IMG/VR virus record: IMGVR_UViG_3300030099_006902
From: an uncultured virus (IMG/VR IMGVR_UViG_3300030099_006902)
Lineage: Duplodnaviria > Heunggongvirae > Uroviricota > Caudoviricetes
Direction: 5' to 3' (one strand)
Length of the DNA: 64,000 bases
Shown: positions 3,501-42,511 of the stretch, piece after piece
Position numbering within the stretch: the first letter of the stretch is position 1
Layout: each line of letters begins with the position of its first letter
Notes under the pieces: generated by a model
The model's database searches: none
The model's input: only the letters and a program-made list of their open reading frames with translations
Told to the model about the DNA's origin: nothing
Translations under genes and position numbers: made by a program

Positions 3501-3710
3501 ATGTGGAGAGTTTACAAATGGGACGGACACTATATTATGGGTGAACTAGTCTCAAAACATTCTACAGAGGCAGCTGCTCTGAAAGCTGCAAAGAAAAGTA
3601 TAAAATTTAAAAATACTGAAAAAGTAAAAAAAGGAAAAGAAACATTTATTTGGTTAGATGCTGAGAACTCAGAACCTTTAGGTGTTATAGTTAAAAAATC
3701 TCGGGGATGA
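3501..3710 (+). CDS. Small basic hypothetical protein
   Basis: Strong SD AGGAGG; its stop codon lies inside the first 8 nt of the tmRNA. Confidence 0.8.
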   Translation: MWRVYKWDGHYIMGELVSKHSTEAAALKAAKKSIKFKNTEKVKKGKETFIWLDAENSEPLGVIVKKSRG

Positions 3711-6997: not shown

Positions 6998-7498
6998 ATG
7001 GACATGATGGCTTTAAAGTTAGACGCGTCGTATAGACCAATAGAAGTTATTGATGCTCTGGAAGCATTAGTGATGTGTATAGTTGGAAAAGCCACACCAG
7101 TAGAGACATATGATAAAAAAATTAGATCACCATCTAATGCTTTTAATTTACCAGCCGTGATAGTATTAAAGACTATAGTAAAATTTAGATTTACTACTGT
7201 TGCATGTAATAGGGCAAACATTGTGTGGAGAGATAACAATCAATGTCAATATTGCGCAAATTATTTTCCGACTGATAAACTTACAATGGACCATGTTTTA
7301 CCAAAATCAAAAGGCGGAAAAAACACTTGGGAAAATTTAGTAGCGTCTTGTATGAAGTGTAATCAAAAAAAAGGCTGCAGAACTACTAAAGAATCTGGTA
7401 TGATACCATTAAAGATGCCAATTAGACCAAAAGCAAATATCTTAAGAACGGTAAGCAAAAATCAAATTAGTGAACTTTGGAAAAATTATTTATGGTAG
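6998..7498 (+). CDS. HNH endonuclease (McrA-like); true start may be 7004 or 7007
   Basis: RDNNQCQYC, TMDHVLPKSKGG, WENLVASCMKCNQKK. Confidence 0.9.
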   Translation: MDMMALKLDASYRPIEVIDALEALVMCIVGKATPVETYDKKIRSPSNAFNLPAVIVLKTIVKFRFTTVACNRANIVWRDNNQCQYCANYFPTDKLTMDHVLPKSKGGKNTWENLVASCMKCNQKKGCRTTKESGMIPLKMPIRPKANILRTVSKNQISELWKNYLW

Positions 7499-7575
7499 TG
7501 CCCCTTAGCTCAGTTGGTTAGAGCAGCTGACTGTTAATCAGCGGGTCCGCGGTTCGAGTCCGCGAGGGGCAGCCA
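7499..7575 (+). tRNA. trnN: tRNA-Asn (GTT), canonical, CCA encoded
   Basis: Acceptor TGCCCCT/AGGGGCA, G73, CCA; anticodon arm GCTGA-CTGTTAA-TCAGC; T-arm CGCGG-TTCGAGT-CCGCG. Confidence 0.97.
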
Positions 7576-7615: not shown

Positions 7616-7792
7616 ATGGCTACAACAACACAACTAACAAAACAAACAGAACAATTGCAAGCAAGAGTAAATCAACTTGTTGATCAGATTTATATTCTTC
7701 AAAATGAGTTGAGAGAGTTTAAAACATCTGTTGCTGGCGATGTAAAATATCTAACTGAGCGCGTTGATGGCAGCAATTCTGGAGGAAGATAA
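7616..7792 (+). CDS. 58-aa coiled-coil hypothetical protein
   Basis: AAGGAG SD; MATTTQLTKQTEQLQARVNQL...; absent from the ORF track. Confidence 0.75.
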   Translation: MATTTQLTKQTEQLQARVNQLVDQIYILQNELREFKTSVAGDVKYLTERVDGSNSGGR

Positions 7793-7793
7793 C

Positions 7794-8270
7794 ATGAACA
7801 CAATAGAGCGGCTACAATCATTAAATTTGACCAATAATGCTATGATTAATCTTCGCTACGAAGAAGGTGCAGATGTGTTTCATTTTAACGAAACAGAAAT
7901 TGAAACTGCTTTATCTGAAACATCGGTAGTTAGTGAATTTGCGTCACTTATAGCACAATCAGGGCTTGATGTAAGAACTCGATGGCAAGGAAATGTAATT
8001 GAACATCTTCGCTCTGAAGATTATCTTGAGGATTATGAAAGAGGAAGTTATGAATTCGAAGAATATCTTGCAAATACAATTACTGAAAATTTTTACGATG
8101 TTGAATTAATTGAATACTCAACAGAAAAGTATGACCATAAACGTGGATTCACTACTCTTACAGCTGAAGTTCAAATTCCATATGAAAATTTTATGAAAGT
8201 AATGCCTTTTATTTCAGGTTGGAGTGTTTCTGTAGAAACTGATAACGGAACTCTTACATTTGATGCGTAA
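7794..8270 (+). CDS. Acidic hypothetical protein
   Basis: GGAGG SD before ATG 7794 (MNTIERLQ...). Confidence 0.85.
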   Translation: MNTIERLQSLNLTNNAMINLRYEEGADVFHFNETEIETALSETSVVSEFASLIAQSGLDVRTRWQGNVIEHLRSEDYLEDYERGSYEFEEYLANTITENFYDVELIEYSTEKYDHKRGFTTLTAEVQIPYENFMKVMPFISGWSVSVETDNGTLTFDA

Positions 8271-8299
8271 CTGGTCTATCTATTGTGGGAGGGTTAATC

Positions 8300-8362
8300 A
8301 TGAAAAAATGTAACTGTTGCGGTTGCATTGCACCTTGTGAGTGTGATTGCTGCTGCAAATAA
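8300..8362 (+). CDS. 20-aa cysteine-rich peptide MKKCNCCGCIAPCECDCCCK (metallothionein-like)
   Basis: GGAGG SD at 8288-8292, ATG 8300, TAA 8360-8362; 9 of 20 residues are Cys in CxC/CC/CCC arrays; no aromatic residues. Confidence 0.65.
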   Translation: MKKCNCCGCIAPCECDCCCK

Positions 8363-8373
8363 TCTTCTGCGCT

Positions 8374-8465
8374 GTTCTGCTCGCATTATAAGCGGAACGT
8401 GGTTGCCGATCGTCACGTAGGCAAAGGTTTTCGGTTATCCTAGTTCTAGACAGAAAACCGGTTTT
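8374..8465 (+). ncRNA. Unassigned structured RNA element (hairpin, pseudoknot, hairpin)
   Basis: GTTCTGCT/AGCGGAAC; CGTGG/TCACG crossed with TTGCC/GGCAA; GGTTTTC/GAAAACC. Confidence 0.35.
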
Positions 8466-8470
8466 ATTTT

Positions 8471-8563
8471 TGGGGGGTGGCGGAATTGGCAAACGCACCC
8501 GGCTGTTTCCCGGGCGGTGATTTACGAAAGTTCACCTTGAAGGTTCGAATCCTTCCCCTCCAG
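8471..8563 (+). tRNA. Atypical class II (long variable arm) tRNA with GTT (Asn) anticodon, U37, no encoded CCA
   Basis: Acceptor TGGGGGG/CCCTCCA, G73; D-arm GCGGAATTGGCAAACGC; CCCGG-CTGTTTC-CCGGG; variable stem GGTGA/TCACC; GAAGG-TTCGAAT-CCTTC. Confidence 0.85.
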
Positions 8564-8575
8564 CCTACCTACTAT

Positions 8576-8734
8576 ATGGATGTAGGCGATTTAGTATTAC
8601 AAGCTTTTATGTCAGTATTGATAGGTATGATGGTTTATCTTTGGTTTTTATCACATCTTATACCGCATGGACAATCAATTTTTGAGATTCAACAAAAGCT
8701 TGAAAACACAACAGAAAAAATAACGCCGCCTTAG
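8576..8734 (+). CDS. 52-aa single-pass membrane protein
   Basis: MDVGDLVLQAFMSVLIGMMVYLWFL...; stop lies within the 5' end of tRNA-Thr; the ORF-track start is inside the upstream tRNA. Confidence 0.55.
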   Translation: MDVGDLVLQAFMSVLIGMMVYLWFLSHLIPHGQSIFEIQQKLENTTEKITPP

Positions 8735-8800
8735 CTCAGTTGGTAGAGCAACGGTTTTGTAAACCGTAGGTCATCAGTTCAAGTCTGATAGGCGGCTCCA
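8725..8800 (+). tRNA. trnT: tRNA-Thr (TGT), CCA encoded
   Basis: GCCGCCT/AGGCGGC acceptor, ACGGT-TTTGTAA-ACCGT, ATCAG-TTCAAGT-CTGAT, 76 nt. Confidence 0.97.
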
Positions 8801-8807
8801 CTTACAA

Positions 8808-9056
8808 ATGAAAAAATCAAAATACAAAGTTGGTGATGTAATATTAGTTAAATCATTTGCTGGCCCAAATATTCACGTAAAATTAAAAAAAAGAATAACT
8901 TCTAAAAAAGGTTGGGATGCTGATGGCTGGGATGCTATTATAATATACAAAAAAGATGTTGACGCTTTGCGAAAAAAAAGTGTGCCATACAAAAAAAATG
9001 AAAAGCCAATTGTGTTTGTATTTGATTGGCAAATAATTAAAAAAAAGCATAGATAA
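8808..9056 (+). CDS. Small basic hypothetical protein (KYKVGDVI, KOW-like)
   Basis: 82-aa ORF directly after tRNA-Thr. Confidence 0.7.
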   Translation: MKKSKYKVGDVILVKSFAGPNIHVKLKKRITSKKGWDADGWDAIIIYKKDVDALRKKSVPYKKNEKPIVFVFDWQIIKKKHR

Positions 9057-9099
9057 AATTATTAAACTATTTAAGACACTTGATAAAAGTAAGGTGAAC

Positions 9100-9309
9100 A
9101 TGTTTAATAATTTTTATAATGTAATTAAAAATCGTGTTAATTATTTCAAGCAAGAATCCAATGTTTTTGAAGTGGAAGTCGATGATGAAATAGAATACAC
9201 AGATGAAATCGAAAAAGCCCTATGGGAGGTTAAAGATTCTTTAGATCTACCAACTGAAGAAATAGAAATTGCTATAGCAACACGTCATAAATCCTTAAAA
9301 AATAGTTAG
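9100..9309 (+). CDS. Small acidic hypothetical protein
   Basis: AAGGTG SD before ATG 9100. Confidence 0.65.
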   Translation: MFNNFYNVIKNRVNYFKQESNVFEVEVDDEIEYTDEIEKALWEVKDSLDLPTEEIEIAIATRHKSLKNS

Positions 9310-40714: not shown

Positions 40715-42511
40715 ATGTCAAAAGATCAAAAAAAGAATTTACCAATCAATTATACAAATAGAGAATTTTCCGGAATTCGAGATGACCTTATGGAATTAGC
40801 AGAGAGATTTTATCCTGACACATTCCAGGATTTCAGCGAGGCATCCTTCGGCGCAATGATGATTGACGCTGTTGCATATGTGGGTGATCAGATGTCTTTG
40901 CATCTTGATTATAACATTAATGAATCGTTTCTTGATACTGCGTATCAATTAGGTAACGTTTTAAGACATGGCCGAGTATTAGGATACAAAGATCCCGGGC
41001 GCCCTTCTACATTTGGGGAGGTAGCACTTTATATAATGGTTCCAGCTAGTTCTACGGGAATGGGTCCTGATACGGCATATATACCTATTCTTTCTCGTGG
41101 AACATCATTCTTGTCCGACACTGGTTTAAAATTTGTTCTTACCGAAAATGTAAACTTTGCCGACGAAAAAAATAGTGTGGTGGTTGCACAGGTAGATAAT
41201 ACGACAGGTGCCCCAACAAGATATGCTATAAAAGCATATGGTAATGTTGTGTCTGGTGATTTTGCGCAAAAAGATGTTAAGGTCGGTGCTTATGAAAGAT
41301 TTAGAAAAGTTAGCCTTAACATTGACAACTTATCTGAAATTATATCTGTATTTGATGCTGAAGGTAATGAATACTTTGAAGTTGATTACCTCGCGCAAGA
41401 TATGGTATACAAAGAACTTAAAAACAAAAATTACAAAAACGATAACGTTCCTTCGATATTAAAACCAATGTTGGTTTCTAGAAAATACGTTGTTGAGAGA
41501 ACCGCAACAGGATATGCGTTACAATTCGGCAGCGGAGAAGATGGTGGTTCCGGTGTAGTTGCACAACCTCAAAGCATTGCACTAGATGTTTTTGGCAAAT
41601 CATATGTGACAGACACAACGTTTGATCCCACAAGATTAACTAAAAATCAAAGTTTTGGTATTGTTCCTTCAAACACTACACTTACAGTTGTTTACCGAAC
41701 CAACAACCCCACAAATTCAAATGTTGGTGTTGGATCCTTAAAAACTGTTGCAAATGCTAGATTAATTTATCAAAACAAAACCTCATTAAGTGTGGACTTG
41801 GTAAATCAAATTAACACAACCATCGAGGTTTCAAATGAAACACCTATTGTTGGAGATATTACTAATCCATCAACTAGTGAGATTAAAAGAAGAATTTACG
41901 ATACATTCCCAACTCAAAACAGAGCAGTAACACAAACAGATTATGAAAGTTTAGCCACACGTATGCCAGGTAAATTTGGTTCTATAAAAAGAGTTAGCGC
42001 ACAAAAAGATAATGATTCACAAAAGCGAAATATTAATTTATATATTATATCTGAAGACTCTTTTGGAAAATTAATAGAATCTAATGGGACCATAAAACAA
42101 AACCTAAAAACATGGCTAAACCAACATAGAATGATTAACGATACAGTTGATATTTTAGATGCATACATAATCAACATTGGAGTTGAATTTGTAATTAAAA
42201 CTGTTGATGGAGCGAACAAGTCAACCGCGTTAGCATCAGCCATAAGAAGAATAGCCGACAGATTCTCAGAAGGATTCTTTATAGGTGAACCAATTTACAT
42301 CAGCGATATTTATTCAGAATTGAAAAAAGAGCCAGACGTTCTCGATGTTTTAAAGGTAAAAATAGTTCCAAAAACAGGGGGCTCATATTCATATGTAGAT
42401 TTGCAAGTTAATAAAAACTTATCTCCTGATGGAAGCTATTTAATGTGTCCAAAAAATGCTATTTTTGAACTTAAATTTCCACAAACTGACGTCAAAGGAA
42501 AGGTTAGATAA
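40715..42511 (+). CDS. Baseplate wedge protein, T4 gp6/baseplate J-like
   Basis: YTNREFSGIRDDL, DFSEAS.G, ESFLDTA, LQFGSG, QNRAVTQTDY. Confidence 0.88.
   Translation: MSKDQKKNLPINYTNREFSGIRDDLMELAERFYPDTFQDFSEASFGAMMIDAVAYVGDQMSLHLDYNINESFLDTAYQLGNVLRHGRVLGYKDPGRPSTFGEVALYIMVPASSTGMGPDTAYIPILSRGTSFLSDTGLKFVLTENVNFADEKNSVVVAQVDNTTGAPTRYAIKAYGNVVSGDFAQKDVKVGAYERFRKVSLNIDNLSEIISVFDAEGNEYFEVDYLAQDMVYKELKNKNYKNDNVPSILKPMLVSRKYVVERTATGYALQFGSGEDGGSGVVAQPQSIALDVFGKSYVTDTTFDPTRLTKNQSFGIVPSNTTLTVVYRTNNPTNSNVGVGSLKTVANARLIYQNKTSLSVDLVNQINTTIEVSNETPIVGDITNPSTSEIKRRIYDTFPTQNRAVTQTDYESLATRMPGKFGSIKRVSAQKDNDSQKRNINLYIISEDSFGKLIESNGTIKQNLKTWLNQHRMINDTVDILDAYIINIGVEFVIKTVDGANKSTALASAIRRIADRFSEGFFIGEPIYISDIYSELKKEPDVLDVLKVKIVPKTGGSYSYVDLQVNKNLSPDGSYLMCPKNAIFELKFPQTDVKGKVR

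Follow-up and report, generated by a model that had tools for sequence, protein, structure and literature searches.

Within the 64,000-nt stretch of viral DNA analysed here (the window; IMG/VR record IMGVR_UViG_3300030099_006902) lies a very short ORF with start signals of its own (Table 1). The encoded peptide has cysteine at positions 4, 6, 7, 9, 13, 15, 17, 18 and 19, that is, at nine of 20 residues (45%), arranged in CxCC, CxC and CCC motifs, and F, W, Y and H are absent. An earlier reading of the window (the sequence-only reading) had proposed such a nine-cysteine, 20-residue ORF lacking aromatic residues and histidine, led by a GGAGG Shine–Dalgarno (SD) sequence 7 nt before the ATG and by a CTATCTA word ahead of the SD. 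All of these features were found in place, and CTATCTA proved to be one instance of a conserved CTAnnTA element. GTG at 8285 offers an alternative start that would give 25 aa; relatives keep only the ATG with its SD.

Table 1 Features at and around the micro-gene locus (positions in the window)
Feature	Position	Strand	Remarks
69-aa ORF	3501–3710	+	
tmRNA, tag ANNNNHFEQRLAA	3703–4034	+	
HNH endonuclease gene	6998–7498	+	
Normal tRNA-Asn	7499–7575		
168-aa gene, no assigned function	7764–8270	+	Anchor for finding related loci; 44 viral relatives
CTATCTA (CTAnnTA element)	8276–8282	+	5 nt before GGAGG
Shine–Dalgarno GGAGG	8288–8292	+	7-nt spacing to ATG 8300
20-codon ORF plus TAA, encoding MKKCNCCGCIAPCECDCCCK	8300–8362	+	ATG 8300–8302, TAA 8360–8362
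Conserved structured RNA, ~93 nt	8369–8461	+	58 distinct sequences aligned
Long-variable-arm tRNA, Asn anticodon GTT	8471–8563	+	ARAGORN; Rfam tRNA 47.9 bits
52-aa membrane-type ORF with the sequence before its ATG	8565–8734	+	ATG 8576
tRNA-Thr	8725–8800		

With a single exception, the sizeable ORFs of the window are on the + strand, and the G+C content is ~35%. Upstream of the cysteine-rich ORF lie a cytidylyltransferase-like gene, the HNH endonuclease gene, the normal tRNA-Asn, a small coiled-coil gene and the 168-aa gene; downstream follow the 93-nt RNA, the long-armed tRNA, the 52-aa ORF, tRNA-Thr and a PIN-PhoH gene. The 168-aa gene matched no Pfam or PHROG family, and distant relatives of it are followed downstream by a RecA-family (UvsX-like) gene. 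On the + strand, the HNH gene ends one base ahead of tRNA-Asn, and this abutment, together with the varying gene content among relatives, suggests that small genes and stable RNAs form a plastic island here. The 52-aa ORF has CTACCTACTAT directly at its ATG and no SD, a layout that relatives repeat (for example, CATAGTTACTAATG); its stop in the window falls inside the 5′ end of tRNA-Thr, and this small gene may be leaderless or use an unusual mode of initiation. Farther upstream, the 69-aa ORF overlaps the 5′ end of the tmRNA by 8 nt.

A 195,690-bp virus record rated complete (G001) matches the window at 100% identity over 401 nt and contains the cysteine pattern once. Because G001 encodes a T4-type major capsid protein (PF07068, 198.5 bits) and the window carries baseplate wedge genes, the carrier was assigned to the uncultured T4-like phages.

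The cysteine-rich composition alone is weak evidence for a gene at this position. In a first-order Markov simulation covering 100 times the window, small ATG-initiated ORFs with at least seven cysteines arose at 0.05 per window. The micro-gene was accepted as real because conservation, not composition, decides the matter.

Census of the nine-cysteine family and selection on its peptide

An unbiased sample was assembled by gathering 44 viral loci through the neighboring 168-aa protein, with the ORF itself not used as a criterion. A cysteine-rich ORF occupied the same place in 16 of the 44. These comprised 14 complete copies with 20 codons and nine cysteines, one copy truncated at the edge of its contig (L019) and one 12-codon remnant (L011). 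The remnant (MEKCDCCNCECC; L011 3517–3555, on the same contig as L053) has an intact SD and CTAnnTA element and is probably a decayed or shortened copy of the micro-gene.

A wider census was made with the nucleotide pattern ATG-N15-TGY-N3-TGY-N9-TGY-N3-TGY-N3-TGY-TGY-TGY-N3-TAR, which forces 20 codons and seven cysteines (C7, C9, C13, C15 and C17–C19) and leaves C4 and the ninth cysteine free. The pattern would miss longer or shorter relatives; the unbiased samples support the length of 20 codons but are small. It returned 34 stretches (including one repeat) from viral contigs, four from genome contigs and at least 120 from metagenome contigs, for 80 of which the flanks were examined. Matches with more than ten cysteines, which are poly-Cys repeats, and three peptides ending in CCCC, which belong to a bacterial group, were excluded. 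The family then comprised at least 99 distinct instances, at least 92 distinct ORF DNAs and at least 72 distinct peptides. A looser pattern with seven TGY codons returned at least 122 stretches from viral contigs, and the 80 loci examined were TGY trinucleotide repeats only, with no family member among them.

Among the matches listed, exactly nine cysteines were present in 71 of 72 distinct peptides, eight in one and ten in none, and C4 was kept in 71 of 72 although the pattern does not force it. Eight cysteine positions are thus fixed in the family (4, 7, 9, 13, 15, 17, 18 and 19). The ninth cysteine lies at position 6 in 41 of the listed peptides, at position 2 in 14, at position 11 in 14 and at position 3 in two. 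None of the 72 listed peptides contains F, W, Y or H, and between the cysteines E, D, N, Q, G, K, T and S predominate. GGAG or GAGG occurs within 20 nt upstream of the ATG in 94 of the 99 instances listed. The loss of frame, SD or cysteines at homologous loci would have spoken against the proposal of the sequence-only reading; across the family, the frame, the SD and the cysteine columns were all kept.

Twenty entries from marine metagenome runs of several studies contained the micro-gene region of the window or part of it. In RNA libraries, matching contigs covered only 7629–7786 and a tRNA-Thr-like piece, both in one library, and two other RNA runs gave nothing, an outcome that speaks neither for nor against transcription of the ORF. 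Among cultured phages, blastn of 7700–9200 returned tRNA-Thr matches only, and neither the 168-aa neighbor (tblastn) nor a type-D locus, one with the ninth cysteine at position 2 (blastn), found a match. The nine-cysteine peptide likewise matched nothing in cultured phages by tblastn, a search in which the low-complexity filter may mask it.

The pattern of nucleotide variation was examined within the family. In 15 close relatives, variable sites fell at the first, second and third codon positions in a ratio of 6/2/17, with a pN/pS of 0.18. Eight of the nine cysteine codons were polymorphic between TGT and TGC, Gly8 used all four GGN codons and Pro12 used two codons. For the type with the cysteine pattern of the window (54 DNAs), pN/pS was 0.147 and variable sites were distributed 8/6/19, such that 19 of 19 third positions varied; the other two main cysteine-pattern types had pN/pS values of 0.202 (17 DNAs) and 0.333 (18 DNAs). 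Over the whole family, TGT (449) and TGC (378) were both common among the matches listed. Cysteine-preserving synonymous variation, which the sequence-only reading had put forward as a check, was therefore borne out, with TGT and TGC swapping freely at pN/pS of 0.15–0.33. The non-cysteine residues G8, A11 and P12 are also selected, G8 and P12 being kept through synonymous changes. This variation indicates that selection acts on the peptide itself and not merely on codon content. Judged from these comparisons, the ORF is almost certainly a real, previously unannotated gene of uncultured marine T4-like phages, and its translation is to be expected.

The upstream element and the RNAs beside the cassette

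The micro-gene forms a compact cassette consisting of CTAnnTA, 5 nt, GGAGG, 7–8 nt, ATG, 20 codons and a stop. In the three types other than type D, CTAnnTA (mostly CTAnTTA) was found in 69 of 71 distinct upstream sequences among the matches listed, and 63 of these 69 copies lie exactly 5 nt ahead of GGAG. The element is absent from type D (23 instances among the matches listed). On the + strand of the window, 10 of 48 CTAnnTA sites lie 10–40 nt before gene starts, compared to 1.4 expected (P = 1.4 × 10−6), with a gene-start list that includes the ORF at 8300 itself. The + strand sites include 8276, 5171, 8565, 40693, 55846 and 60889, among others. One of these sites precedes the baseplate wedge gene at 40715. 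The late promoter of T4 is TATAAATA, which differs from the CTAnnTA word. From its placement, CTAnnTA is a probable late-type phage promoter element of the cassette, and late expression of the micro-gene is probable because the upstream element is common to structural genes.

Among the 99 instances listed, the cassette is followed by an RNA like that at 8369–8461 in 57, by tmRNA in 13, by protein genes or other sequence in 27 and by the contig end in two. It therefore stands directly before a stable RNA, 0–8 nt from the stop, in 70 of the 99 instances listed. Where tmRNA follows, it starts 0–6 nt past the micro-gene stop in all 13 instances, and ARAGORN confirmed it at L205, L207 and L208. In related phages (L205, L207, L208, L244, L298 and L349), the cysteine micro-gene holds the slot directly before tmRNA that the 69-aa ORF takes in the window. 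One of these loci, L244, is a 1755-bp contig with the phage cassette and tmRNA that was binned in a Rickettsiales-titled metagenome-assembled genome (MAG); most likely, a piece of phage DNA was grouped there with a bacterial genome, and as a clue to the host the contig is weak at best. Each of the 23 type-D instances is flanked on both sides by a protein gene, and the gene upstream matches SMC_N-type ATPases weakly. Comparison of the loci indicates that the cassette has moved between genome positions in uncultured marine T4-like phages.

The 93-nt RNA downstream of the micro-gene has helices that are 100%, 99.5% and 100% paired across the alignment, with compensatory changes, and its 3′ hairpin is kept through at least three sequence solutions. 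One 3-bp stem has a loop that pairs with sequence farther downstream, forming a pseudoknot, and a second stem-loop has a probable loop–flank pseudoknot. The pseudoknot helix 38–41/55–58 is 65.5% paired in one register; by eye, three variants seem to be register-shifted. RNAs of this type begin 1–8 nt after the stop of whichever ORF precedes, and they often occur where the cysteine ORF is missing, immediately behind the stop codon of the 168-aa gene or a different gene. A tRNA-Asn usually follows at once, and a U-run is found instead when no tRNA follows. No Rfam family matched the RNA at the gathering threshold or at E ≤ 10. We read the element as a putative tRNA-linked stable RNA. In the window, the tRNA that follows it has G73 and a U at position 37, and its long arm shows compensatory changes between loci by eye; a normal tRNA-Asn is present besides this GTT tRNA.

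Function of the peptide and its relation to known systems

Several known systems resemble the micro-gene. According to an excerpt of PMC7826182, nine-cysteine metallothionein domains hold three divalent ions, and CxC, CC and CCC are typical motifs. The animal beta-type domain combines nine cysteines in such motifs with small polar spacers and no aromatic residues, a make-up that the phage peptide shares. The animal domain has ~30 residues and is part of a two-domain protein, whereas the phage peptide has 20 residues and stands alone; the two show no detectable sequence relationship, and metal binding by the phage peptide is a prediction. The metallothionein of Neurospora crassa has seven cysteines and binds Cu(I). 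This 26-residue copper protein was once considered among the shortest metallothioneins, as stated in part of PMC4755600. Like the phage peptide, it is a free-standing, single-cluster, cysteine-rich peptide, but the phage peptide is shorter, has nine cysteines and a CCC end, and is unrelated in sequence. Bacterial SmtA-type proteins have ~55 aa, histidine and cysteine ligands and a zinc-finger-like fold. SmtA, BmtA and NmtA are described in an excerpt of PMC8790569 as cysteine-rich metal-binding proteins under an ArsR/SmtB-family repressor. No regulator adjoins the phage gene, in contrast to the SmtA-type systems, and the phage peptide matches nothing in Pfam or NCBIfam.

Bacterial look-alikes of the phage peptide likewise follow an ArsR/SmtB gene. 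Apart from repeats, the cellular pattern matches among those listed were only peptides of 18–20 aa (for example, MTHGADCDCGPDCQCDCCCC) encoded ~25 nt behind an ArsR/SmtB regulator. They have eight cysteines, their own SD and the consensus M[TA][HP][GR][AS][DA]C[DA]C[GD]PDC[QP]CDCCCC, with their own AAAGGAGG, and were found in a Chloroflexota MAG (L245, 1504–1882) and on two metagenome contigs (L286 and L307). The adjoining regulator matched NF033788 with 84.6 bits, compared to a cut-off of 55. Regulator orthologues in genomes of the same class gave 30 loci, from which two loci of unpublished genomes and L390, where the gene was not found by motif, were set aside. In most of the 27 remaining loci, the regulator is followed, by eye, by the start of an arsenite-methyltransferase-like gene; two of these genes matched NF008823 with 292.6 and 290.7 bits, compared to a cut-off of 263. 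At L389 (1791–2655), an 18-aa ORF with eight cysteines (MTHQCDCPCDSDCTCNCC) lies between arsR and arsM. Tiny peptides with the cysteine motif have thus been placed under a metalloid sensor in bacteria, and the Chloroflexota-type micro-ORF is a candidate arsenite-binding peptide of ars operons. The ArsR-linked peptides, with eight cysteines, may be convergent with the phage family rather than related to it.

The favored explanation is that the phage peptide is a minimal, metallothionein-like peptide that would form one metal(loid)–thiolate cluster, a prediction in which our belief slightly outweighs our doubt. The selected feature of the 20 residues is the nine cysteines, eight of them fixed and one needed at position 2, 3, 6 or 11, with small, polar or acidic residues between them. 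The nine thiolates would wrap a single cluster, as in the nine-cysteine beta-type domains with their three divalent ions, and the peptide, probably made late in infection given an upstream element common to structural genes, would capture soft metal ions in the infected cell (Zn, Cu(I), Cd and possibly As(III)), buffer them or pass them on. Pointing this way are the fixed cysteine count, the coding selection, the retained SD, the variation in neighbors, the ArsR-linked look-alikes and the element before a baseplate gene. A ninth cysteine that moves among four positions fits a flexible cluster, unlike a disulfide map or a codon counter. The peptide has the low mass, the very high cysteine content in CxC, CC and CCC motifs and the lack of aromatic residues (no F, W, Y or H in any of the 72 peptides among the matches listed) by which metallothioneins are defined as a class. 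It belongs to none of their established sequence families: four family members gave no Pfam family and four gave no NCBIfam family at E ≤ 10, and a profile of 75 family sequences matched no PDB chain at E ≤ 10. The comparison with metallothioneins is therefore one of make-up and not of homology. The proposal of a metallothionein-like micro-gene consequently stands as regards a genuine, selected, SD-led gene with metallothionein-like make-up and a conserved count of nine cysteines. A purely metal-binding peptide would leave the frequent position before stable RNAs unaccounted for.

A narrower version of the favored explanation, which we regard as unlikely, is that the peptide would be a late-made sponge for arsenite or soft metals, neutralizing arsenic that enters marine cells via phosphate uptake in phosphate-poor water. 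As(III) binds three thiolates, and nine thiolates would suffice for three As(III)S3 sites or a single M3S9 cluster. Among the matches listed, cellular look-alikes occur only within ars operons (arsR, micro-ORF, arsM). In the window, a phoH-type gene lies 950 nt downstream of the micro-gene.

Other accounts of the locus were weighed against the metal(loid)–thiolate reading. That the ORF is no gene at all, but TGY-rich sequence that owes its retention to some RNA- or DNA-level role or to chance, gains something from the ease with which repeats give TGY-rich frames and from the small ORFs with at least seven cysteines in about 5 of 100 simulated windows. It is hardly credible given the codon-position periodicity, the pN/pS values of 0.15–0.33, the conserved ATG, SD and stop, and at least 72 peptide variants with intact cysteine columns; as far as sequence evidence goes, the comparative data refute it. 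The sequence-only reading had also raised a RiPP-like precursor, for instance of a thioether-crosslinked peptide. This fits a short, cysteine-rich peptide with no known family, but it is very doubtful because no maturase-like Pfam family occurs among the neighbors at 6.4–10.7 kb, which are a cytidylyltransferase-like gene, an HNH endonuclease, PhoH-PIN and proteins with no assigned function. The context also differs between lineages, and 20 aa are too short to hold both a leader and a core. A cysteine-rich peptide with a different job (thiol/redox buffer, Fe–S or cofactor carrier, disulfide-knotted host inhibitor, or virion or assembly part) is rather unlikely. In its favor, the same conservation evidence applies to it, the late-type upstream element is common to structural genes and there is no homology to metallothioneins. 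Against such jobs, inspection by eye revealed neither CxxCxxC…CP nor any further known cofactor motif, an odd number of cysteines is ill suited to full disulfide pairing, the movable ninth cysteine suits a flexible cluster over a fixed disulfide map, and the cellular look-alikes are tied to a metalloid regulator.

The remaining account, also raised by the sequence-only reading, treats the ORF as a cysteine-codon sensor: when Cys-tRNA runs short, be it from sulfur limitation or from an attack on tRNA-Cys, ribosomes would slow on the nine cysteine codons, and their position beside the stop codon would alter the folding, processing or read-through of the downstream RNA and tRNA-Asn or of the tmRNA. 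The ORF has the form of a leader, with nine sensed codons among 20, a cysteine triplet at its very end, and CTAnnTA and the SD directly upstream. A precedent exists in mycobacterial polycysteine short ORFs, which are presented in an excerpt of a preprint as very short, cysteine-dense attenuators at the 5′ end of the transcript that respond to cysteine (bioRxiv 10.1101/834739). The mycobacterial ORFs are leaderless, precede cysteine-metabolism operons and act through a duplex that sequesters the ribosome-binding site, whereas the phage ORF has a strong SD, precedes stable RNAs or unrelated genes and encodes a selected peptide sequence. Its partners are the 93-nt RNA with tRNA-Asn, tmRNA and unrelated genes, not genes of cysteine supply. 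That the cassette stands before three kinds of neighbor (pseudoknotted RNA, tmRNA and protein genes) argues against a leader, as do the 27 listed instances, all 23 of type D among them, that precede protein genes or other sequence, and the abundance of the 93-nt type of RNA without any cysteine ORF. The gap from stop to RNA varies among loci, a 205-nt region was no more stable than its shuffles (z = −0.38), no terminator-like site was found on the + strand, and the U-run after the last hairpin of the RNA is gone where a tRNA follows. Because synonymous sites are free, with every third position of the window's type variable, no RNA pairing appears to constrain the ORF. G8, A11, P12 and the number and spacing of the cysteines are selected, and a codon counter needs none of these. 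The leader proposed for the downstream RNA and tRNA is accordingly disfavored by its varied neighbors, by the RNA occurring without the ORF and by the synonymous retention of G8 and P12. We keep it as a quite improbable reading because we see no other ready explanation for the 70 listed instances that abut a stable RNA; this adjacency could possibly reflect the plasticity of an island made up of small genes, tRNAs and an HNH gene of homing type.

The sequence-only reading had stated that no phage peptide of this form was known to it, and full-text literature searches on phage, viral or cyanophage metallothioneins and on very small bacterial metallothioneins with ArsR/SmtB indeed found none. 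By make-up, the nine-cysteine family would thus constitute a new, phage-borne and minimal family of metallothionein-like peptides in the operational class. It has been invisible in phage annotation because gene callers skip genes of 20 codons, and it recurs in marine metagenomes of several studies. In uncultured T4-like phages, the cassette flags what is likely a late promoter, along with an island of stable RNAs that includes an undescribed pseudoknotted RNA, and the rule of nine cysteines with one movable member is a sharp and cheaply testable prediction. Should the arsenite-sponge version hold, the peptide would be the smallest gene-encoded metallothionein-like protein known or found in the literature searched and the first known from any bacterial virus, and its gene would represent a novel type of auxiliary gene. 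If the peptide binds metal, its length would undercut that of the 26-residue fungal protein once regarded as the shortest metallothionein, its gene would be the first phage gene of such a kind in the literature searched, and ocean viruses would manage the trace metals or arsenic of their hosts.
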